DNA from: Clostridia bacterium
GTDB taxonomy: Bacteria; Bacillota; Clostridia; RGIG6154
Length of the DNA: 64,000 bases
Reading direction: 5' to 3'
NCBI GenBank assembly: GCA_017410375.1
Contig: JAFQQW010000058.1
Span: 9,192-73,191, forward strand
Shown here piece by piece: positions 1 through 64,000 of the stretch; the first letter of the stretch is position 1, and each line of letters begins with the position of its first letter. The notes beneath the pieces were generated by a model. It was not told the origin of the DNA. It saw nothing but the letters and a program-made list of their open reading frames with translations, and made no database searches. A program made the position numbers and the translations under genes.

Positions 1-53
1 ACATAAACCTCGTCCAACATTGCCGCATATTTCTTAAATCTTTCAATTGCCAT
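1..53 (-). CDS. 5' end of a minus-strand gene running off the left edge (MAIERFKKYAAMLDEVY...), probably a phage head-morphogenesis gene
   Basis: ATG at 51-53 (minus) with GGAGG 7 nt upstream; only 17 codons visible. Confidence 0.25.
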   Translation of the reverse strand, partial: MAIERFKKYAAMLDEVY

Positions 54-120
54 ATTCATTTCCTCCATTTTCGTATTTTAATTTTTTCTTTACTTTTTGG
101 CTGATGCGCACGCCGTTCGC

Positions 121-426
121 TTACAGCCCCAATGCCCGTCTTAATCGCTCTGCCTCGGGATCGTCGCTTTCACCGCCTGCAGGACCCGTAAACTGTACCG
201 CCTGCCCCTCAAACAAATAAGGGTGCTCGGAAAACAACTTCTCCACCGATGCCTCGGGGGTCAGATCGGACATATCCTGCTCGGCTAAAATGCCCTCTGC
301 CGCCGATACCGAACGCACTGAACGGGCGCTTAAATGTGCTCTTGTCACCTCTTTGCGCACCTCGCTTAAAATCTCAGCAATCTGCGCATCCTCTAAGGCA
401 TAGCCCTCCAAAAACTGTCTGTCCAT
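121..426 (-). CDS. hypothetical small phage-associated protein (101 aa)
   Basis: ORF immediately downstream of and overlapping (ATGA) the portal-like gene; no recognisable motif. Confidence 0.4.
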   Translation of the reverse strand: MDRQFLEGYALEDAQIAEILSEVRKEVTRAHLSARSVRSVSAAEGILAEQDMSDLTPEASVEKLFSEHPYLFEGQAVQFTGPAGGESDDPEAERLRRALGL

Positions 427-1541
427 TACAACACACCTCCCTTTTCACCGTACAAATAGCTTCGTACCTCCTGCGGTGTTAAAACGCCTTTGTCTAAAAG
501 CAACAGCAAATCCGAAATTTCGTCTGTCTTTCCGGTTAAAACCGAATCGTCAAAGTGGAACACCGCCTCTGCCTTACCTTCTTCGCAAAGCCCGTACACA
601 CTTAAAATATCCTTTGTTGCCTGCAACATATCATAAAGGGCTTTTTCCAATGCCCTTTGTAATGTTTTCACAGTCGCATAGGTGCGGTGTCGCATGATTT
701 TAAGCTCGGTCGCGGTGCGTGCCGAAAGATTTGCATCCGACAGCGTTCCGCGGGACAGCGCACAGCAGTCCTCAATCCTCTGCAGAATGCAGTTTAAGCC
801 CTCTATAATGTCTTTTTGACGAAAGGCAGGCGAATAATCGCAGAACAAATCGTCCTTGCCTGTGCAAAGCAGGCGATACAGCCGTTTATCGGGAAGCTTA
901 GGCTCACCCTTTTTGTCCCTGAAAAAGGCGGTATCTGCCACATACAGCGCACGGTTTCCGCTTTCAAACTCCCAGAGCAGGCGCGAAAACTGAGCCTCTG
1001 CCTCGGAAATCAATCGGTGCGCCTTTTCGCAAAAGGGCATCCCGTCGGTGGTGGAAAAATAGCCGTAAAGCGGTGTGGTGCGATTGGGAAAACGCACTTC
1101 CGCACGGTATTGCTTCCAGTTTTCGGGCATCGTTTCCAAAATTCTGCCCTTATACATGGCAAAATTCATAACTACATACTCATTTGGCAACTGGGTATGC
1201 CGTTCCACACGCACCGTATCTCCCTGCCGTTCGTAAAACTCAACTACGGTGGGCTTGCCTGTGCTCTCATCCCGCTCTAAAATTTTGTAATCCCCGTTTT
1301 TAACTGCCATTGCCTGCATTTTACCGCCTGCAAAATAAGGCTTTAAGATGACCGAGCCATGCAGCAGCCCCTCGGTCACATGGCTTGTGATGTTTTGCAA
1401 AATGGCATTTGCCGTATCCTGCAGAGCAGGTGCGACGGTTGTTTTAAGCTCCAGGGTCGTAAGCTCTGCCACCGTTCGGGAAATACTCTCTTCCAACCGA
1501 AGCGTATTTCCCTTTTCGGATATTTTATCTGAATCCAACAT
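426..1541 (-). CDS. phage portal-like protein (about 372 aa); start moved to the ATG at 1539-1541, which follows AAAGGAGG
   Basis: Position directly after the terminase large subunit. The ORF-track N-terminus (to 1640) is translated from a copy of repeat family A and lacks an RBS. Confidence 0.45.
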   Translation of the reverse strand: MLDSDKISEKGNTLRLEESISRTVAELTTLELKTTVAPALQDTANAILQNITSHVTEGLLHGSVILKPYFAGGKMQAMAVKNGDYKILERDESTGKPTVVEFYERQGDTVRVERHTQLPNEYVVMNFAMYKGRILETMPENWKQYRAEVRFPNRTTPLYGYFSTTDGMPFCEKAHRLISEAEAQFSRLLWEFESGNRALYVADTAFFRDKKGEPKLPDKRLYRLLCTGKDDLFCDYSPAFRQKDIIEGLNCILQRIEDCCALSRGTLSDANLSARTATELKIMRHRTYATVKTLQRALEKALYDMLQATKDILSVYGLCEEGKAEAVFHFDDSVLTGKTDEISDLLLLLDKGVLTPQEVRSYLYGEKGGVL

Positions 1542-1629
1542 CTGTTCCTCCTTTCTCGCTTTTTGATCGTACGCGTCGCAACAAGCCTTCCTTTTACGCA
1601 TATGCTTTTTTATCAGGCTGTTGCTCCTT

Positions 1630-2808
1630 TTAGCCACCATAACACAAAATTGTACTCACAAAATAGCGGATGTCATCCATCGCGTGGTCTGAAACCTGCA
1701 CCACCGTATCGGTTGTGGCATCGGTGTCCCAGGCATAGGTCTCAAACTCCTTTTTTGTCGCCCTGCAGGCAGGACTGAAGCTTAAATATCCCTGCTCCAA
1801 CAGCGAGGACACCCGCCGAATGCCGTCCAGCACGCGATTTTTGGCTTTGCGCACCGAAAACCTGCCCGAGCGGCGTATCAGTTCGATAAAGGATGCCGCG
1901 GAGGGGTCAACCACCACACACGAAATGGGTCGGTCGCCCGCCAATTCCTCTAACGCCTTGTAATACTCCGCATCGGTCTTTAAGCTTTCTGTGGCTTTGC
2001 CGTCATGATAATACTCCCTGATGCGGTGGGCGTGCTTTCCCACCACCTGCCAAAGCCCCATGGAACACGGGTTTAAAGTCCCGTAATCCACCGAAATGTA
2101 GTAAGGATAGCCTGCGCGCTCTTGGACTTCCCTCACATGCTTTTCGGGGTCGAACATGGGGTACACCAACCCGGATGCAACCACCCAGTCCCCTTCCACA
2201 AACCGTTTGTAAAAGAGTCCGGTATACTCTTTTTTTAAATCGCGAATGTAGTCGGCGGGTAAAAACGTGTTGTCATCTATGTGAAACCGGACAGAAAGCA
2301 AACTTAAATCAGCACGGTCTAAATATTTTTCTTTCAGCCAGTGCCGGGGACTGTCCGGGTTGGTGGTCGCAATCAGCTTTGCGCCTTCTAAGCTCAGGCG
2401 CGAGAGCAACATGGAAAAAAAGCTTTCGGGAAGCAGAGTCAGTTCGTCTAAATAGGCACCGTACAGCGTCATACCGCGGATTTTGCTTTCCGCACCGCTG
2501 TCGCCTGCGCCCTCAAAATATACTTTGCGGTCAAACAGATTTCCGCTCTTTTTGGCAAGGGAGTATGTAAAATGATTTGCCCCTACCATGTTTTGCAGAA
2601 GCTCCAAAGCGTTTCGCTCTAAGGTATTTAAGGTTCGGCCTGCCATTAGAAAGGTGCTCCCTTTGGGCGAGGCGGCAACAAAAAACGCAAACAGAATGAG
2701 CGAAATGTAGGTCTTACCGCTGCGCACCGCCCCCTGCAGGATGTTGATACGCTTCAAGCCCCCTTGTTTGAACAGCTTTAAAAGCTCTGCCTGTTTTTCG
2801 GTTACCAT
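1630..2808 (-). CDS. phage terminase large subunit, PBSX/XtmB-like
   Basis: Walker-A GAVRSGKT near the N-terminus, ATPase then nuclease-like C-terminal half, AGGAGG RBS, followed by the portal-like gene. Confidence 0.8.
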   Translation of the reverse strand: MVTEKQAELLKLFKQGGLKRINILQGAVRSGKTYISLILFAFFVAASPKGSTFLMAGRTLNTLERNALELLQNMVGANHFTYSLAKKSGNLFDRKVYFEGAGDSGAESKIRGMTLYGAYLDELTLLPESFFSMLLSRLSLEGAKLIATTNPDSPRHWLKEKYLDRADLSLLSVRFHIDDNTFLPADYIRDLKKEYTGLFYKRFVEGDWVVASGLVYPMFDPEKHVREVQERAGYPYYISVDYGTLNPCSMGLWQVVGKHAHRIREYYHDGKATESLKTDAEYYKALEELAGDRPISCVVVDPSAASFIELIRRSGRFSVRKAKNRVLDGIRRVSSLLEQGYLSFSPACRATKKEFETYAWDTDATTDTVVQVSDHAMDDIRYFVSTILCYGG

Positions 2809-2811
2809 AGT

Positions 2812-3078
2812 TCACGCCTCCTGCATTGCCTGAATCATCTGTTCAAGCACGGTATTTTCTTCGGACTGTTCTAAACCGCAAAGCCCTAAAATTTCTTTGG
2901 CGGCAGGCACAGACCCTTTCTTTACCGCCAGTTCAAACAGCGATGCTAAGAGCAGTACACCCTTGTCCGTGCGTCGCTTTGTAAGCCCGAAATTCCGCTT
3001 TAAAAACTTGGCTTCCTCCGCCGTCACGTCCTGCCTTAACAGCAGTTCGGTCTCCTTTTTAAAATCATAGCCCTTCAT
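2812..3078 (-). CDS. hypothetical small phage protein (88 aa)
   Basis: ORF between the DNA-binding protein and terL; position would fit a small terminase-associated protein but no motif supports that. Confidence 0.35.
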   Translation of the reverse strand: MKGYDFKKETELLLRQDVTAEEAKFLKRNFGLTKRRTDKGVLLLASLFELAVKKGSVPAAKEILGLCGLEQSEENTVLEQMIQAMQEA

Positions 3079-3653
3079 TTTTTATCAATCCTTTCCGCCA
3101 GAGCCTTCACTCTTTCCCGATGCAGGATTCTTTTGGCTTCGTAGTCATTGTCCCTGCCCGAAAAATTGTTAAATTTGCTTTTTTTAGTACGCGGCGCAAA
3201 GCCGCTTGTTTTGTTATTGTTTAAATTGTTATATTTGTTATTATTGTTATATATAATAGAAGAATTTTCCTCAACGGACCCTGAGCGGACCCTCAACGGT
3301 TCCTGAGGTGGTTTCACACAGGTGATTTTGCTGTAATTTAAAAGGGTTATGAGCAGTCTGCCATTGCCACATGACTGGACCCTCACGGGACTCTCAGGAA
3401 ACTCTGACTCTAAAAAATGCAGAACTTTTTTGAGTGCCGGCTGAGAAACGGTTTGCTTTGAACCGCCTTTGCCCGATTCGCAAATCTCGCAAAGCTCTTT
3501 TTTGGTGGTGTAAAACTGTCCGCGCTCCAAGCCTGAGCCGTCCCGATATGCCGCCTTCATCAGCATATATAGATAAATTTTTAAGTAATAGGGTGGCTTT
3601 TCCCAGATTGCCGACTCCATAATGCCTCTGTCTAAGGGGACAAAACCTTCCAT
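3075..3653 (-). CDS. phage-associated winged-helix DNA-binding protein (possible terminase small subunit or replisome-organiser N-domain-like); start uncertain, alternatives at 3845 and 3950
   Basis: W..PYYLKIYLYMLMKA...G.F..T..EL helix-rich N-terminus, Asn/Lys-rich linker, basic C-terminal helix; GAAAGGA RBS 8 nt before the ATG at 3651-3653. Confidence 0.4.
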   Translation of the reverse strand: MEGFVPLDRGIMESAIWEKPPYYLKIYLYMLMKAAYRDGSGLERGQFYTTKKELCEICESGKGGSKQTVSQPALKKVLHFLESEFPESPVRVQSCGNGRLLITLLNYSKITCVKPPQEPLRVRSGSVEENSSIIYNNNNKYNNLNNNKTSGFAPRTKKSKFNNFSGRDNDYEAKRILHRERVKALAERIDKK

Positions 3654-3667
3654 ATCCCACATCCTTT

Positions 3668-3889
3668 CTAGGGTCTTAAGTAATAGACCTCTTTTAAATA
3701 GAGCCTCTCTTCTGCTTCCAGAGAGTCCAATTTCCGAAGCAGTATTGTTTCGCACATTTTGCATAAAATGCCGTTTGAGGCCGTTTTTTCGCCGCATACG
3801 CAACGTTTCGGCATAGCCTGTCTGATGTTTTCGCCTCGCATACATGTTTCCTTTTTCCTTTCTGCCGAAATGGCAATGTTTTTCGCCAT
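3668..3889 (-). CDS. possible small zinc-ribbon protein (CxC-x11-CxxC); overlaps the alternative N-terminal extension of the previous gene in another frame
   Basis: Motif KRCVCGEKTASNGILCKMCE followed by an amphipathic helix; its ATG is the terminal ATG of a family-A 28-mer repeat. Confidence 0.3.
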   Translation of the reverse strand: MAKNIAISAERKKETCMRGENIRQAMPKRCVCGEKTASNGILCKMCETILLRKLDSLEAEERLYLKEVYYLRP

Positions 3890-3934
3890 ATGCTTTTTTA
3901 TCAGGCTGTTGCTCCTCTTTCGCTCTGCGCCTCC

Positions 3935-3992
3935 AGCTACTCGCTTCCACCTCATCAGTCTCGCTTTGCTCGACAGCTTCTCCTCAAGGGGA
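3935..3992. repeat. degenerate copy of twin-palindrome repeat family B (CTTCTCCTCAAGGGGAAG)
   Basis: Same cacctcatc-[palindrome]-[CTTCCCCTCAAGGGGAAG] order as the copies at 5352, 5697 and 28855. Confidence 0.5.
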
Positions 3993-4194
3993 AGCCTTTT
4001 TTGTCATTCTGAACGAGCAACGCGAAGTGAAGAATCTCCCGTGCAGATGATTTTATACCAAAACAACCTTCGTTCGTTTCTCAGTTGCACTACGCAACAC
4101 GATCTCAAAAAAATAAGTTTCCTAGCGTACCCTTCTACCCTCTCTACAAGTTTCCTCAGTACTTTTGCTTGTTGCGTTACGCAACGAACACTTC

Positions 4195-4340
4195 AAAAAA
4201 TAAGCAAGCGGAGCTTGCGTATCGCAAAAAGTATTTCGCAGAAAACTTTTTGCGGAAACGGAGTACCAGACCGAAAAACGAAGTTGTGTTTTTCAAAACG
4301 CAACGAGTAAAAAGGTCTCGGTACGACGTGCTTAAGGTTG
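4195..4340 (+). repeat. repeat family A copy: hairpin GCAAAAAGT-ATTTCGCAGAAA-ACTTTTTGC plus a conserved 3' tail
   Basis: Homologous to 5120-5240, 5450-5560 and 16265-16395. Confidence 0.6.
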
Positions 4341-4392
4341 CTTTCGCAACCGATGCCATTATTATACCACAAAATCCCTAATTTGTCAATAG

Positions 4393-4430
4393 TTTTTGGC
4401 AAAAAAGTTGCGTTATGCAACTTTTTCTTG
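4393..4430 (+). terminator. hairpin AAAAAGTTGCGTTATGCAACTTTTT followed by a T-run
   Basis: 10-bp stem, loop GTTAT, then CTTGTTTTTT. Confidence 0.45.
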
Positions 4431-4486
4431 TTTTTTACACACTTTTTGCCTTTCGCAAAACACTCGCTTGCTTCACAATCCCTTTT

Positions 4487-4735
4487 TTAATAGAGTTTAA
4501 TTTCATATTTTTGAATCAACCGCAAAAGTTTTTCTACTTTTTCGGTGTCGTCCAGTTTTTCACTACGCACAATTTTTTCCACCTTTTCAAAAAACATATT
4601 ATACGCCTCGTTGTATATCTGCTCAAAATCCATGTTCTGCATGGTTCTCCACACCGCATCGCTGATATACGTTTTAATCATACGGTTTGTGATACTTTTC
4701 CGAAAATCTTCTTTATTAAAATACATTTCAGACAT
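4487..4735 (-). CDS. small conserved hypothetical protein (82 aa), paralog of 18609-18857
   Basis: MSEMYFNKEDFRKS...EKLDDTEKVEKLLRLIQKYEIKLY, about 50% identical to the 18609 ORF; AAGGAGG RBS 8 nt before the ATG. Confidence 0.55.
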   Translation of the reverse strand: MSEMYFNKEDFRKSITNRMIKTYISDAVWRTMQNMDFEQIYNEAYNMFFEKVEKIVRSEKLDDTEKVEKLLRLIQKYEIKLY

Positions 4736-4944
4736 TTGTTTGTCCTCCTTAAATAAAAAAAGTGCGCAGCCCGAGAGCCACGCACCAAAAAGACGCAGTG
4801 ACTCCATTCCTACGGTTGCAACACCACATAAACATCATCCCACATAACAGAGGTATGACAAGAATAGAGTGTACGCTTTTTACAAAGATAGCGTACCCTC
4901 TGTTTATGTGGTTTATGTAATTGTTTATGTAATGTTGCATGTTC
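4736..4944 (-). promoter_or_regulatory. structured 5' leader (riboswitch- or attenuator-like) of the small gene, ending in a terminator that abuts the RBS
   Basis: Long-range helix CCACATAAACAGAGG / CCTCTGTTATGTGG; conserved core GCTATCTTTGTAAAAAGCGTAC; block CTGCGTCTTTTTGGTGCG; hairpin GTGCG...CGCAC plus T7; homologous to 18414-18608. Confidence 0.35.
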
Positions 4945-4973
4945 AGTATATCATACTTTTTTTAATTTATCAA
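4945..4973 (-). promoter_or_regulatory. sigma-A-like promoter TTGATA-17-TATACT for the leader and small gene
   Basis: -35 at 4968-4973 and -10 at 4945-4950 on the minus strand with a 17-nt spacer. Confidence 0.4.
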
Positions 4974-5119
4974 CCTTTTTTAACAGGAAATTCATTTCTC
5001 TCCCTCCGTCACCGCTCTGCGGTGCCACCTCCCTCGTCAGAGGGAGGCAAAAAAGGCTCCCTTGTGTAAAGGGCGCTGTCGAACAAAGTGAGACTTAAGG
5101 GAGAGAAAATGCGAACGGA

Positions 5120-5240
5120 GTGAGCACCAGCCAAAAAGTATTACTTGTAAACTTTTTGGCTAAAAGGAGCAACAGCCTGATAAAAAAGCATATGCCGACA
5201 AGGCGTATGTGTAAAAGGAAGGCTTGTTGCGACGAGATTC
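5120..5240 (+). repeat. repeat family A copy, including the invariant 28-mer GAGCAACAGCCTGATAAAAAAGCATATG (5167-5194)
   Basis: Hairpin GCCAAAAAGT...ACTTTTTGGC; the 28-mer is identical to the copies at 1599-1626 and 3887-3914 (both in minus orientation). Confidence 0.65.
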
Positions 5241-5351
5241 TTTAGGGGTGCTGTCCAAATCTTTGATTTGGCTAACAGTCCCCTATGCAACAGCGCTCCA
5301 AATCTTTGATTTGGTTAAGCGCCACTGTCGCTATCGCTCAGATTGACACCT

Positions 5352-5440
5352 CATCCGTCAACTTACAGTTGACACCTTCCCCTCAAGGGGAAGGCTATGG
5401 ATGGTGCTGTGTTCAGGGCTGGCTTCGCATTCAGAATGCG
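5352..5440 (+). repeat. repeat family B: GTCAACTTACAGTTGAC + CCTTCCCCTCAAGGGGAAGG twin palindromes with a conserved flank
   Basis: Near-identical copy at 5697-5790; inverted copy at 28855-28910. Confidence 0.65.
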
Positions 5441-5449
5441 CGAGCGGTT

Positions 5450-5560
5450 AAGCAAAATACTTTTTGCAGGCAAGCCGAAAAGTATTTCAAAGAAAACTTT
5501 TCGGCTAAAAGGAAGAGCAACAACGAAAAGGAGCACTTTGTCGTAAGGCAAAGTGTGATA
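5450..5560 (+). repeat. repeat family A copy (hairpin CCGAAAAGT-ATTTCAAAGAAA-ACTTTTCGG)
   Basis: Same loop consensus ATTTCNNAGAAA and AAAAGGA(A)GAGCAAC tail as the other copies. Confidence 0.55.
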
Positions 5561-5696
5561 ATACCGTTGTTTGCTCTGACGCGGGGGCGCCGCGGTCGAA
5601 ACGCAGGAGCGTAAGTTCCTGTCGTTTCGGGTTACCGCAAGAGAGCTTGGTATGGCAGAAATGCTATGTGTATGCGCTTTTTCAGGCTTCGCATTC

Positions 5697-5790
5697 AGAA
5701 TGACACCTCATCCGTCAACTTACAGTTGACACCTTCCCCTCAAGGGGAAGGCTATGGATGGTGCTGTGTTCAGAGCTGGCTTTGCCTTTA
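5697..5790 (+). repeat. repeat family B, second direct copy
   Basis: About 95% identical to 5352-5440, including the GCTTCGCATTCAGAATG flank. Confidence 0.65.
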
Positions 5791-5855
5791 GAATGACAAA
5801 AAACGAAGACCTCTTTAAAAGAGGTCTTCGAAAAGCAAAATATCAAATTTAAATA

Positions 5856-7538
5856 TTATTCGCCTTCAACAGCGGCTTTCTGTGCATCGTAAGCTGCAGT
5901 CCATTCGGAGGGCTGGAGCGGAACTTCGGGAGCCGGAGCTGCACCGGATGCCTGGTTTTCGGTGATGTAAGCATTCATCTGCTCAACATATTCCTTACCA
6001 CCCTGTGCATACCATTTTTCCAATGCTGCATCGTATTCAGAAACTTCCATCTGACCTGCGCAGATCTTGGTTACAACCTGAACCAATTCGTCCTGAGCGG
6101 TGATGAACTGAGTGCTGGATGCGATTGCGGGAACGAAGCCGTTATCCAAAGAGTCAATCTGGGTAACCTGGCCAATGTGGAAGTTGTTTAAGGTAATATC
6201 TTCCATATGAGCGGTCTTTGCGGGGTCGATACCACGCAGTGCGAAGAATTCAGGGTCACCTGCTTTTCTTACGATACCGGCCGGGAATGAAGCACCTCTG
6301 CCCTGTTCGCCGGGTTCAACCTGGATGCTGGTCTTAACGCCGCCGATCATTTCATAGGTAATACCTTCAACACCGTTTGCTACCATATCCCAAACTTCGT
6401 CAGAAAGGATGTAGTCGCAAAGCTGGATGAAGTTGTTCGGTTCAGCACATGCGGTGAATACGCAGAACTGACCCCACATGGGTTTGTAGTAACCGTTACC
6501 TGCTACAATGCCGTTATCATCCTTTGCAAAGAGGTATTCAACGTAAGAACCTTCGGGGCTCTGTAAATTGTTGTTTGCTTCCATCAAAGATTTTTCATGG
6601 CTAGCGATATCGCCTACGAAACCGATACCGAGACCATATCTCTGCTGTTTGAAGTTATCGTTAACAGCGGTCTTGGTGAGGGTCGGGCCGTCCTTATCGA
6701 GATAGCCTGCCTTCTGGATTTCCTGGGTGTAAGCGAGCTGCTTCTTGAAGATGTCAGACTTCTGAGAATACTGCGGGAACATGTAATCATAGTCTTCGCC
6801 TTCGTAAGCGTACCAGCCATAGTCACCATAGAAACCACGGGTGAATTCAAAAGGACCAAACTGCTTTGTGGTATCGTCAGTCCAGCAAGAGGTAGCCAAA
6901 GTATCGTTCTTACCGTTGTTATCCGGATCGTCTTCGGTCATTCTCTTTAAGAGTTCTTTGAATTCGTCTGCAGAAACTTCATGGAATTCACGGTCGAGGT
7001 ATTCGCCAAGGCCGATGTTCTTGAGCCAGTCAGCACGAACGATGATACCTTCGTTACGGGTCAGAGATGTTCTCGGAACCGCATAGATTTTGCCGTCATC
7101 GAGGGGTTTAACGCCTTCCCAAGCGGTGGGATAGGTGTAAGCCATCAGGTTGGGGCAGTTTTCTTCGGTTAAGTATTCGTCCAGTGCTACAACCTTACCA
7201 GCTTCGCATACGTCGATGTAAGCCTGTACGGTTGTGGTCGGGAACAATGCTGCGTCCGGATATTCACCGGAAGCAATCATGAGCTGTAACTGTTCCAGAT
7301 AACCGGAACCGGATGCTGTCTGAATTTCAACTGTAACGCCGGTCTTTTCTTTAAAGCCTTCGATGATCATTTCATCGATAACGGTAGGACCTTCAGCGCT
7401 ACCAATGTTACCGAACACGGTTAAAGTGTCGGCTGCATTTTTCTTGCCGCCGTCTTTGCCGGAGCCGTCACATGCTACCAAAGAAAGTACCAGAGTAAGC
7501 GCCAGCATCAGAGCCAAGATTTTGCTTAACTTTTTCAT
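5856..7538 (-). CDS. ABC transporter extracellular solute-binding lipoprotein (family-1 sugar SBP, LplA/YtcQ-like)
   Basis: Signal peptide plus lipobox LVACDGSG; about 560-aa SBP architecture; last gene of a three-gene importer operon. Confidence 0.8.
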   Translation of the reverse strand: MKKLSKILALMLALTLVLSLVACDGSGKDGGKKNAADTLTVFGNIGSAEGPTVIDEMIIEGFKEKTGVTVEIQTASGSGYLEQLQLMIASGEYPDAALFPTTTVQAYIDVCEAGKVVALDEYLTEENCPNLMAYTYPTAWEGVKPLDDGKIYAVPRTSLTRNEGIIVRADWLKNIGLGEYLDREFHEVSADEFKELLKRMTEDDPDNNGKNDTLATSCWTDDTTKQFGPFEFTRGFYGDYGWYAYEGEDYDYMFPQYSQKSDIFKKQLAYTQEIQKAGYLDKDGPTLTKTAVNDNFKQQRYGLGIGFVGDIASHEKSLMEANNNLQSPEGSYVEYLFAKDDNGIVAGNGYYKPMWGQFCVFTACAEPNNFIQLCDYILSDEVWDMVANGVEGITYEMIGGVKTSIQVEPGEQGRGASFPAGIVRKAGDPEFFALRGIDPAKTAHMEDITLNNFHIGQVTQIDSLDNGFVPAIASSTQFITAQDELVQVVTKICAGQMEVSEYDAALEKWYAQGGKEYVEQMNAYITENQASGAAPAPEVPLQPSEWTAAYDAQKAAVEGE

Positions 7539-15957: not shown

Positions 15958-16208
15958 CATTGCATTATAGTATAATAATTGCGACTACAGAAAAAACACT
16001 TCGTGTTTTACATTTATGCAATTATTGTACCACGGAGTGATGAAGCAAGCCGACTACGGCTTGCACTTATGGTATAATAATTGCGACCAAAGAAAAAACA
16101 CTTCGTGTTTTACATTTATGCAATTATTGTACCACGGAGTGATGAAGCAAGCCGACTACGGCTTGCACTTATGGTATAATAATTGCGACCACGGAGTGAT
16201 GACAAAAA
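15958..16208 (+). repeat. tandem direct repeat (about 2.3 x 118 bp), each unit carrying TGGTATAAT and two hairpins
   Basis: The unit TATAATAATTGCGACC...CAAGCCGACTACGGCTTGCACTTATGG recurs at about 15965, 16075 and 16183. Confidence 0.7.
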
Positions 16209-16264
16209 GGCTCCCTCTGACGAGGGAGCTGGCAAACCGCAGGTTTGTCTGAGGGAGAGATAAA

Positions 16265-16395
16265 GCGAGCTTCGCTCGCCCCTCGTGAAAAGTATTTCGA
16301 AGAAAACTTTTCACGAAAAAGGAGCAACCGACCGAAAAACGAAGTTGGGTTTGCCAAAACACAACGAGACAAACGGTCGTGTTGCGACACAAAAA
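16265..16395 (+). repeat. repeat family A copy
   Basis: Hairpin GAAAAGT-ATTTCGAAGAAA-ACTTTTC; tail AAAAGGAGCAACCGACCGAAAAACGAAGTTG...GTTGCGAC matches 4258-4340. Confidence 0.55.
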
Positions 16396-28359: not shown

Positions 28360-28427
28360 CCTTCATACATTCATAATAGAATTAGTATATCACATTTTTC
28401 TCCGTATTGCAAGCAAAAAAGCAAGTC

Positions 28428-28787
28428 TCACGACTTGCTTTTTTCTAAGTTGTTTAAAATTTCTTCGCAAACGCCTTCAAAATTTTGGTTTAATTCCAAA
28501 TTGGAATATCTGAAAACCTGAATCCCCAGCCCGCTTAAATACGCATCTCTTTCCGCATCCCGCTTTTCGCCCGCCTGCTCAAAATGCTGAGAGCCGTCAA
28601 GCTCTATCACAAGCTTTGCAGAAGCGATGTAAAAATCAACAATATATGAACCGATAACCTTTTGGCGGTTTACGGTAACGGGCAAATTTTTCAGAAAATC
28701 ATACCAAAGATGCTTTTCTTCTTTGGTCATGTTCTTACGCAAGGCTTTCGCGTTGCCGGTCAGATTTTTATTATTTGTTTTGTTCAT
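28428..28787 (-). CDS. DUF559 endonuclease-domain protein (Vsr-like fold)
   Basis: Standalone 119-aa ORF; the ORF-track TTG start at 28832 lies inside a repeat hairpin, ATG at 28787 preferred. Confidence 0.6.
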   Translation of the reverse strand: MNKTNNKNLTGNAKALRKNMTKEEKHLWYDFLKNLPVTVNRQKVIGSYIVDFYIASAKLVIELDGSQHFEQAGEKRDAERDAYLSGLGIQVFRYSNLELNQNFEGVCEEILNNLEKSKS

Positions 28788-28814
28788 TTCCACCTCATCC
28801 GAGTTGCGTTCCGC

Positions 28815-28910
28815 AACCCACCTTCCCCTCAAGGGGAAGGCTTTTAAGTTCCATCTACCTCAAAAGGCTTCCCCTTTGAGGGGAAGCTGTCAACGAAGTT
28901 GACTGATGAG
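28815..28910. repeat. repeat family B: one CCTTCCCCTCAAGGGGAAGG hairpin plus an inverted full copy (CTTCCCCTTTGAGGGGAAG-GTCAACGAAGTTGAC-TGATGAGGTG)
   Basis: Reverse-complement arrangement of the 5352 and 5697 elements, between the GH78 stop and the DUF559 start. Confidence 0.6.
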
Positions 28911-28935
28911 GTGTAGCTTGCAAAGCAAGCGTCCC

Positions 28936-63552: not shown

Positions 63553-63596
63553 CGTATTTTCTATCCCTCTTTTCGGTCAAAAAGCCTCTTTTTTTG

Positions 63597-64000
63597 ACAT
63601 CTGAAGCGTTCCGCCCATTCATACAATGTAGGGCAGGGGCTTGCTCCTGCCGAAAAAGGCGAAATGATACGCAGGTACTTCCCTACAAGACGTTAATTTG
63701 ACATCTGAAGCGTTCTGCCCATTCATACAATGTAGGGCAGGGGCTTGCTCCTGCCGAAAAAGGCGGAACGAGCAAGCCCGTTCCCTACAAGATTGTAATA
63801 AAACAACTTTGTGCTTGCAAATTTTGTTAAATTGCAGCAAAATTCAATTGCAGAGAAGCAGCTGTGCGAAATGATACGTAGGTGCTTCCCTGCAAGACGT
63901 TAATTTGACATCTGAAGCGTTCTGCCCATTCATACAATGTAGGGCAGGGGCTTGCTCCTGCCGAAAAAGGCGGAACGAGCAAGCCCGTTCTCTACAAGAT
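63597..64000. repeat. tandem long-palindrome repeats of about 100 bp (three or more copies, one with an internal deletion of about 120 bp), running off the window edge
   Basis: Unit GACATCTGAAGCGTTCTGCCCATTCATACAATGTAGGGCAGGGGCTTGCTC...GAGCAAGCCCGTTCCCTACAAG at 63597, 63700 and 63907. Confidence 0.7.

Follow-up and report, generated by a model that had tools for sequence, protein, structure and literature searches.

Twin-hairpin repeats of Clostridia and phages form the ends of a small DUF559 gene cassette and probably constitute, together with its product, a REP/RAYT-like system

In this study, we analyzed a family of short structured repeats, hereafter family B, in a 64,000-nt stretch of DNA from a Clostridia bacterium (GenBank assembly GCA_017410375.1, contig JAFQQW010000058.1, positions 9,192 to 73,191; the whole stretch is referred to as the window), together with a small gene of the same window encoding a DUF559 protein. 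A preliminary description made from the letters of the window had reported these repeats as twin palindromes. The twin palindrome is one mobile unit of 47–50 nt and not two binding sites, and two inverted units constitute the terminal repeats of a ~0.47-kb cassette whose sole gene encodes a DUF559 protein of 119–123 aa. By analogy with REP (repetitive extragenic palindromic) repeats and their REP-associated tyrosine transposases (RAYT), we consider it probable, with some reservation, that the Vsr-like PD-(D/E)xK nuclease DUF559 acts as the driver of the system.

From the inside outwards, each unit comprises a fixed flank, a first hairpin and a fixed pyrimidine/purine second hairpin, in the order CACCTCATC, type base (C or A), hairpin 1, A followed by C or G, hairpin 2 (CTTCCCCT-loop-AGGGGAAG), G or C, and C. 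The anatomy was determined on 265 distinct units of public sequence, among the matches listed; the use of an exact search pattern (CACCTCATC N14-24 CTTCCCCT N2-6 AGGGGAAG) biases this sample to perfect flanks and perfect hairpin 2. Hairpin 1 occurs in 235 different sequences among the 265 units and varies in length from unit to unit. An uninterrupted stem of at least 5 bp is formed by 83% of these 235 versions, compared to 15% of shuffles, and every position of the stem is occupied by four to six pair types, indicative of compensatory changes. What is conserved in hairpin 1 is its shape, whereas its sequence is free. Moreover, type base and closing pair of hairpin 2 vary together (C with a C-G pair in 185 units, A with a G-C pair in 67, 13 discordant), and two classes, C-type and A-type units, can therefore be distinguished.

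Using a relaxed scan, we found eight units in the window, five of family B (at 5347, 5704, 3948, 28791 and 28866(-)) and three of sister families. The twin palindromes and direct copies noticed in the preliminary description are real: CCTTCCCCTCAAGGGGAAGG is present exactly at 5375, 5732 and 28821 and with three mismatches at 3976 (shuffle expectation 0.00), GTCAACTTACAGTTGAC is present exactly at 5357 and 5714 (shuffle expectation 0.14), and both main copies are contained in a 101-nt direct repeat (5338-5438 vs 5695-5795) of 95% identity. Stems and loops of the main copies also have the sizes given there, with 7 bp and a 3-nt loop for hairpin 1 and 9 bp with a 2-nt loop for hairpin 2, which can equally be drawn as 8 bp with 4 nt. 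Single-strand folding of 5345-5412 yielded -17.5 kcal/mol (z = -5.5), with an outer stem closing both hairpins. The family-B units and the DUF559 gene of the window are as follows.

5347..5395, plus strand: C-type unit of family B, with CACCTCATC at 5347-5355, C at 5356, hairpin 1 at 5357-5373, hairpin 2 at 5375-5394 and the terminal C at 5395.
5704..5752, plus strand: second copy of the 5347 unit, with hairpin 1 at 5714-5730, hairpin 2 at 5732-5751 and a 3' tail TATGGATGGTG to 5763.
3948..3996, plus strand: imperfect A-type unit of family B, reading CACCTCATCA, GTCTCGCTTTGCTCGAC, AG, CTTCTCCTCAAGGGGAAG, CC, then a T6 run.
28791..28841, plus strand: C-type unit at the gene-proximal end of the DUF559 cassette, with flank CACCTCATCC at 28791-28800, hairpin 1 GAGTTGCGTTCCGCAAC and hairpin 2 at 28821-28840.
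28866..28913, minus strand: inverted A-type unit, whose reverse complement reads CACCTCATCA, GTCAACTTCGTTGAC, AG, CTTCCCCTCAAAGGGGAAG, CC.
28428..28787, minus strand: DUF559 gene, 119 aa, a Vsr-like PD-(D/E)xK nuclease by Pfam PF04480 and PDB 3hrl.

In the 5347 unit, the 3' tail TATGGATGGTG extends to 5406 and pairs with the 5' flank; the tails of the 5347 and 5704 units look like the last remnant of a collapsed partner unit. The degenerate copy described on the left proved to be a true unit at 3948-3996, albeit with imperfect hairpins (one mismatched pair in hairpin 2, an internal loop in hairpin 1, z = -0.9). Its hairpin-1 variant is also found in L175 and L352; labels of this kind denote stretches of public sequence gathered for comparison, many of which come from metagenome bins.

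The pattern scan recovered at least 120 stretches in IMG/VR viral contigs and at least 120 in a one-genome-per-species collection, and the family is accordingly not the outcome of one local duplication within the window, a possibility kept in view by the preliminary description. Among the matches listed, the hosts are mostly rumen and gut Clostridia (Oscillospiraceae, Acutalibacteraceae, Lachnospiraceae, Ruminococcus, Eubacterium) and also Selenomonadaceae, and the isolates carrying units include Bifidobacterium simiarum, B. callimiconis, Neglectibacter timonensis and Lachnospiraceae NE2001; some metagenome-bin labels are doubtful, and a contig binned as 'E. coli', for example, does not resemble that species. 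Units are present across phyla, in phages and within coding regions. On phage contigs they often lie 14–36 nt upstream of the next start codon and display a mild gene co-orientation bias (29 vs 13), which is a rough view, given that open reading frame (ORF) calls are unreliable in G+C-rich contigs and include many spurious long ORFs.

These units are discrete and mobile. Units that are 100% identical to each other but reside in unrelated flanks form 148 pairs, representing 39 distinct sequences. In 77 of these pairs identity breaks off with the first CACCTCATC base; on the other side it ends a single base (C) past hairpin 2. Outside position -1 (A or C) and positions +1 to +3 (C, T/A, T), the flanks are uninformative, and neither a target-site duplication nor a target motif was found at the unit flanks. 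In addition, related phage contigs offer empty and filled versions of the same site: the site filled by different units in L006 and L089 is empty in L056, and the same holds for L044 (empty) and L052 (filled) and for L053 (empty) and L116 (filled). In L052 the unit adds 31 codons in frame to a phage SNF2-type helicase, as seen by comparison with an uninterrupted homologue of 68% identity. A portal-like phage protein and two ORFs longer than 2,000 aa also contain in-frame copies. Taken together, empty sites and identical units in unrelated flanks show insertion and not evolution in place. The REP- or BOX-like character suggested in the preliminary description is borne out by elements that are short, structured, multi-copy and sharply bounded, that occur as solos, inverted doublets and arrays, and that are present or absent in relatives.

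Several units are accompanied by further short modules. A hairpin module GCGGGCG..loop..CGCCCCTAC(GG) often follows directly after the unit in the viral contigs L006, L011, L041, L076, L103 and L104; comparison of L006 with empty L056 shows it co-inserted with the unit, and within the long ORF of L104 it yields the peptide ..RADVGIGPYG... Another module, ending in ..CTCGCAATGA(CAGGGGA), is often found just 5' of CACCTCATC in L009, L102, L121 and L210, and in the window GGCTTCGCATTCAGAATGA at 5686-5704 occupies the corresponding position. A head-to-tail unit array with a 54-nt period (18 codons) is located at the 5' end of a 690-aa ORF, where its translation is repeated TPHPALRATFPSRGRLRE (L110, 1484-1640).

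At 28.8 kb, the inverted copy reported earlier is present; the 'extra solo' hairpin beside it, however, possesses its own flank CACCTCATCC and its own hairpin 1 GAGTTGCGTTCCGCAAC, and 28791-28913 consists of two complete units, convergent and heterotypic (C plus A), that fold at -40.2 kcal/mol (z = -10). The preliminary description had also remarked on the adjacency of this copy to the DUF559 start, but did not recognise DUF559 as the gene of the element. On the gene strand, 28791-28841 reads hairpin 2', hairpin 1', CGGATGAGGTG, gaa, ATG; the flank of the unit is the Shine-Dalgarno sequence of the window DUF559, and a like layout is seen in L125, L159, L221, L135, L161 and L194. The encoded protein matches PF04480 (E = 5.6e-31, 107 bits against a cutoff of 20.6) and PDB 3hrl (E = 6e-13), matches the NCBIfam YcjD equivalog below the cutoff, and otherwise matches only DUF559 and related restriction-endonuclease-like (REase) families. 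Residues D51, E62, D64, H68, D77 and R80-D81, among which the catalytic ones are presumably to be sought, are invariant across eight cassettes, and the median dN/dS of 0.24 denotes purifying selection on DUF559.

DUF559 homologues of 60–75% identity were detected by tblastn in nine other unit-selected loci, and all of them abut units, as does the window gene (10 of 10). On the gene strand, the 5' end of the cassette reads AAAAGC, hairpin 2', hairpin 1', (C/T)GGATGAGGTG, ~3 nt, ATG, and the 3' end reads ..CACCTCATC, hairpin 1, hairpin 2, (G/C)CTTT; the usual fit leaves 3–5 nt between GATGAGGTG and ATG and places the stop codon within hairpin 1. In other words, the Shine-Dalgarno sequence of the cassette (GAGGTG) is the reverse complement of the flank of one unit, while the final codons, stop included, are encoded by the other unit. 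Since this layout is constant, the two inverted units are the terminal inverted repeats of the cassette, usually one C-type and one A-type. In agreement, the C-terminus TSSVT[S/L/T], present in 57 of 60 sampled homologues, is the translation of CACCTCATCAGTCACTTCGTGA and is encoded by the unit. Divergent pairs of units up to 1.5 kb apart have spacers of either 14–106 nt (~36 pairs) or 339–445 nt (~16 pairs); the long-spacer class contained DUF559 wherever checked, and no other gene appeared between such pairs.

The association was also examined in the reverse direction, on 66 distinct DUF559 genes (at least 54% identity) whose loci were chosen by protein alone. A perfect pyrimidine/purine hairpin was located within 140 nt of 62 of these genes, and hairpins were present on both sides of 34, with an identical core on both sides in 29 of the 34. 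Hairpin density amounted to 5.3 per kb near DUF559 compared to 0.058 per kb elsewhere, i.e. a ~90-fold difference. The hairpin-2 family tracks the DUF559 clade: genes at 60–75% identity are accompanied by CTTCCCCT or CTTCTCCT hairpins, those at 55–59% identity mostly by a CTCCCTT..AAGGGAG family with a AATCCCTC flank. The clade is large (at least 7,990 clusters at 90% identity) and almost absent from plasmid and cultured-phage collections. The association of DUF559 with the units is hence a direct observation at these loci, whereas its catalysis is what we infer.

Cassettes in various states of decay connect this element with gene-less pairs of units. A 40-aa DUF559 stub is fused to the right unit in L194, L161 carries a premature stop and a 3' deletion in DUF559, and in short divergent pairs the spacer still shows what is left of the gene ends, GAA-ATG or ..ATTAA; gene-less pairs thus derive from cassettes. 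Heterotypic (C + A) combinations account for ~80% of divergent pairs and for 24 of 25 convergent pairs, compared to ~37% expected from the type frequencies, and the convergent pairs lie 8–29 nt apart. In L297, units of alternating orientation with spacers of 43 and 17 nt form an array resembling the bacterial interspersed mosaic elements (BIME). The sister strain L359 (GalT 95% identical) harbours a frameshifted, truncated DUF559 at the same GH78-GalT locus as the window, and its two upstream units share a single hairpin 2, which corresponds to a 46-nt deletion between palindromic hairpin 2 copies; this locus is a decayed copy and not an empty site. Within the window itself, there is one intact cassette gene with its 5' unit (28428-28841), and the rest are non-autonomous derivatives, namely the solos 5347, 5704 and 3948, the inverted neighbour 28866 and the sister units 4997, 5055 and 16210.

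Additional features were noted around individual cassettes. When L359 2795-4000 is compared with window 28360-28935, the 3' half of DUF559 is seen to be replaced by a gene for a 227-aa membrane protein with no Pfam match and its own promoter-like sequence, and L359 is without the GH39 gene between GalT and the RlmL-like gene. In the 'TSSVTS' cassettes (L245/L085, L125, L277, L194, L161), conservation extends beyond the units, with AAGGGACAAAAAAGC to the left of the left unit and TTTTTTGTCCCTAACTTGACAAAATCATA to the right of the right unit, and L194 has a full TTGACA-N16-TATATA promoter-like site before its left unit; on the basis of this site and the conserved outer flanks, the cassette may carry its own promoter and an outward-facing -35. 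A 1,123-nt cycle comprising the DUF559 cassette and a 184-aa membrane-protein gene was encountered in three independent assemblies (L376-L380), on contigs whose ends overlap by 141 nt (contigs of 1,264 nt) or 48 nt (one contig of 1,171 nt); L376 contains more than one turn of it joined to unique DNA, and the cycle could represent a tandem duplication or a circular form. One exact DUF559 allele is found on 16 contigs (L366-L373) with constant neighbours, i.e. a tRNA_anti-like gene, DUF3791, a small 23S_rRNA_IVP protein and a reverse transcriptase, a neighbourhood that may be a diversity-generating retroelement.

Related arrangements are encountered beyond Clostridia. In E. coli K-12, ycjD (DUF559; L356 7190-7830, NC_000913.3 ~1351190-1351830) is directly preceded by a perfect 17-nt inverted repeat, TCACCTCATTCTGACAA...TTGTCAGAATGAGGTGA, whose 3' arm holds GAGGTG and the annotated start and sequesters both, and the ORF ends inside a pyrimidine/purine hairpin. 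Across 5,426 E. coli genomes, the 68-nt hairpin segment downstream of ycjD was located at a median of 17 places each; it is a single hairpin plus flank (CCCTCACCCTAA..) without hairpin 1, and may be the 'box C' repeat first described beside envM/fabI. In Photobacterium sp. GJ3 (NZ_CP073579.1; L382 740-960), a DUF559 gene with 42% identity precedes tandem (period 147 nt) and inverted copies of CCCCACCTAG plus CCTCCCCCTT-GAA-AAGGGGGAGG, again a flank with a pyrimidine/purine hairpin and without hairpin 1, and a viral-contig homologue of 39% identity (L250) has flank plus hairpin on both sides. Distant phage DUF559 genes are mostly without hairpins, so that the association appears to belong to the stand-alone, YcjD-like DUF559 clade of ~120 aa. 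We tentatively propose, as a conjecture that may well fail, that stand-alone YcjD-type DUF559 nucleases are the trans-acting enzymes of a cross-phylum hairpin-repeat superfamily, a second class of 'REPtron' with PD-(D/E)xK in place of HUH. Each repeat of such a superfamily would consist of a flank and a pyrimidine/purine hairpin, with a variable hairpin in addition in Clostridia. The literature on DUF559, YcjD, PF04480 and COG2852 contained no link to repeats, and the motif string appeared in no paper, in a search that covered few subscription journals; we therefore regard the association as provisionally new.

The role of DUF559 as the enzyme follows the logic of REP/RAYT, in which a small nuclease gene lies between its own repeats. 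According to the mechanism we propose, the DUF559 nuclease would recognise the hairpins by their structure, whether the DNA is single-stranded or cruciform, and would nick next to them, upon which units, and now and then an entire cassette, might be copied to new places by host replication or repair. Each DNA strand would obtain a distinct left and right end from the difference between its C and A ends, and the heterotypic ends hint at strand-specific processing. A number of points weigh against this REP/RAYT-like interpretation. What links enzyme and repeat is association, and the co-variation of hairpin family and protein clade could be mere co-inheritance of a gene with its own ends. PD-(D/E)xK nucleases hydrolyse DNA and do not join it, which leaves the insertion step unexplained, the hardest case being solos in non-homologous sites. 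Merely ~4% of the unit-selected loci hold DUF559, phage DUF559 genes at 35–50% identity are mostly without such hairpins, and the cassette of the window itself lacks a right-hand unit, its gene having a unit at the 5' end only and its stop codon in the loop of a plain terminator hairpin. No empty site for the whole cassette was found among 380 loci, and the exact DUF559 alleles looked up showed one genomic context per allele. A RAYT-like transposase, which the preliminary description had envisaged elsewhere in the genome, was not detected either: a single tblastn search of limited sensitivity with E. coli RayT against the window and 2.35 Mb of related loci gave no match better than E = 4.

A plausible, if rather unlikely, alternative is that DUF559 is a free-standing selfish gene of the homing-endonuclease type, for which the units are only expression signals (ribosome-binding site, hairpins at mRNA ends, terminator) and landing pads; the units themselves would, with the same limited likelihood, spread otherwise, by another enzyme, by template switching at hairpins or by recombination between copies. 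The Vsr/DUF559 group indeed includes a group I intron homing endonuclease (PDB 3r3p; PMC3424549), the PHROGs matches of DUF559 are HNH and homing endonucleases, and the gene is sporadic, with pseudogenes in close relatives. Units also vastly outnumber DUF559 genes, and recombination at hairpin 2 demonstrably reshapes loci, as in L359. On the other hand, homing accounts for allelic sites and not for exact-ended 47-nt solos at unrelated sites or inside ORFs, no other candidate enzyme was seen beside the units, and a coding sequence running into the unit in 57 of 60 homologues is a closer relation than that of a gene to its landing pad.

That the host has selected the units as cis-acting signals in RNA or DNA, be it as intrinsic terminators, for mRNA stabilisation or for processing, and that they are repeated for their usefulness, we consider improbable. 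Strong folding, the position of phage units 14–36 nt before start codons and the co-orientation bias noted above would suit such signals, and three hairpin 2 copies of the window are terminator-like (3976, 5059-5073 on the minus strand, and 28821). The terminator role entertained in the preliminary description, however, is not supported for the family as a whole: T is found in only 61%, 52% and 41% of sites at +2, +3 and +4, the T-run being missing from most copies, including those at 5375 and 5732, which are not terminator-like. Moreover, units occur in both orientations and also inside ORFs, no Rfam family matches them, and identical copies in unrelated flanks together with empty sites speak for insertion; the host-signal explanation fits a minority of copies only. 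Even further from the data is the earlier suggestion of two operators for two different dimeric regulators, which we regard as scarcely credible. Both palindromes are dyad-symmetric and adjacent, as operators might be, but the 235 hairpin 1 sequences with their compensatory changes indicate recognition of structure and not of sequence, and a shape kept while the sequence is free excludes a sequence-specific operator; the units are, in addition, spread across phyla, phages and coding regions, and no regulator gene is linked to them.

Turning to known systems, the REP/RAYT-like interpretation finds its closest counterpart in REP sequences, BIMEs and REP doublets forming hairpins (REPIN) with their RAYT (TnpA-REP), in which the repeats enclose their own small nuclease gene (PMC2817692, PMC3116915, PMC5581495). 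As with REP and REPIN, the repeats described here are short, structured and palindromic with exact ends and no target duplication; as with REP and BIMEs, they occur as solos, long-hairpin inverted doublets and alternating arrays, with two types per doublet akin to Y and Z in E. coli BIMEs; and as in REP/RAYT, a small nuclease gene lies between two inverted copies and repeat family and protein clade co-vary. The differences are likewise clear. The unit is a 47–50-nt twin hairpin with a CACCTCATC[C/A] head, compared to the GTAG or CGTC head of REP (PMC3733652), and the bracketed gene encodes a Vsr-like PD-(D/E)xK DUF559 protein and not an HUH/Y1 transposase. RAYT genes are single-copy and vertically inherited. 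Furthermore, the ribosome-binding site and stop codon of DUF559 lie inside the repeats, and the units are found also in phages and in-frame within genes. REP sequences are short imperfect palindromes of high copy number that are mostly extragenic; of the present family, the two scans recovered at least 120 stretches each, the window contains eight units, and some copies are intragenic.

Insertion sequences (IS) and miniature inverted-repeat transposable elements (MITE) share with the cassette its ~50-bp terminal inverted repeats and the commoner gene-less derivatives that arise by internal deletion (intermediates L194, L161 and L359). In contrast to IS, there is no target-site duplication and no DDE, serine or tyrosine transposase, the cassette measures only ~0.47 kb, and single ends, as solos, are discrete repeats themselves. 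The IS200/IS605 elements resemble the present system in hairpin-defined ends, absence of target duplication and distinct left and right ends, the latter suggested here by the C/A asymmetry. These elements require a Y1 HUH transposase and a short conserved target beside the left end, neither of which is seen here. For homing endonuclease genes, no structured terminal repeats that exist also as hundreds of independent copies are known. In other respects, the Vsr-like 'EDxHD' homing enzyme I-Bth0305I (PDB 3r3p; PMC3424549) is comparable, being a small nuclease of the same fold group with a sporadic distribution and degenerate copies in relatives. The Rickettsia palindromic elements (PMC3184786) are likewise palindromic repeats tolerated in-frame in protein genes, but differ in sequence, size and hosts, and no associated gene is known for them. 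In keeping with the present association, an independent survey of inversion-prone inverted repeats found DUF559 14-fold enriched among the genes flanked by them (PMC9881135); its passage on this enrichment offers no repeat-element interpretation.

DUF559 (PF04480, E. coli YcjD) is a very large family without assigned function, and a defined DNA partner gives it a testable role. If correct, the superfamily proposal would account for what DUF559 does as well as for the origin of orphan repeat families, including the ~17-copy repeat near E. coli ycjD, and for a class of repeats that are strewn over Clostridial and gut-phage genomes and interrupt metagenome assemblies. The units also give rise to spurious 'hypothetical proteins' (..TFPSRGRL.., ..SPQGEG..) and to extra peptides in real phage proteins. 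Should DUF559 drive the repeats, REP/RAYT would no longer be the sole known partnership of a miniature palindromic repeat with a domesticated or selfish nuclease, and structure-specific nickases with a portable 47-nt recognition module might prove useful as reagents.

Other interpretations of the units were tried and dropped. In hairpin 1, G.T and A.C mismatches number 3 and 21, respectively (0 and 4 if internal ones only are counted), and since such low counts shift with the register chosen and are not reliable, the attempt to tell the folding strand was dropped. In reverse complement, A-type units contain CTGATGAG, reminiscent of a hammerhead ribozyme; most copies, however, read CGGATGAG, which breaks an invariant base of the hammerhead core, and the GAAA / stem III context is absent around the units. 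A coding repeat was rejected on account of the variable length of hairpin 1, the different reading frames and the occurrence on both strands. A scan of the whole window at Rfam gathering thresholds returned no match, a permissive Rfam scan of 3800-5900 returned chance-level matches only, and a tRNA/tmRNA search of the window found none.

The three remaining units of the window belong to sister families, which have the layout of family B with other fixed sequences.

4997..5049, plus strand: sister-family unit with TCTCTCCCTCCG, a CACCGC-TCT-GCGGTG hairpin, CCTCCCTC-GTCA-GAGGGAGG and C.
5055..5106, minus strand: degenerate sister-family unit of the CTCCCTT..AAGGGAG type, convergent partner of 4997-5049.
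16210..16260, minus strand: sister-family unit with TCTCTCCCTCAG, CAAACC-TGC-GGTTTG and GCTCCCTC-GTCA-GAGGGAGC.

The first two of these fold together at -28 kcal/mol (z = -5.2), and the CTCCCTT..AAGGGAG family is the one that also flanks DUF559 genes of 55–59% identity. Directly upstream of the 16210 unit lies a 102-nt tandem repeat (15960-16191; 2.3 copies, 96% identical) with a promoter-like TATGGTATAAT core.

The family-B solos 3948, 5347 and 5704 are located in a repeat-filled, non-coding stretch of 1.9 kb, and window 3950-5855 is a mosaic that includes further repeat families: GGCTTCGCATTCAGAATGA at 5420, 5686 and 5777, which brackets the 5704 unit on both sides, GTCATTCTGAACGAGCAACGCGAAGTGAAGAATCTCC at 4005, and AAAAGTATTTC..AAAACTTTT at 4226, 5132, 5477 and 16287. 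Other similarities within the window comprise 1574-1636, inverted relative to 5157-5234 (91–94%), 3880-3919, which matches 1592-1631, and 4202-4327, which matches 16263-16388 (77%). The genes of window 1-3950 look phage- or plasmid-like, e.g. a 291-aa ORF with a low-complexity N-rich tail (3075-3950, minus strand); as the GTG annotated as its start falls within the flank of the 3948 unit, this start has probably been miscalled. A second tandem array, with a period of ~104 nt, occupies the right edge of the window (63555-64000).

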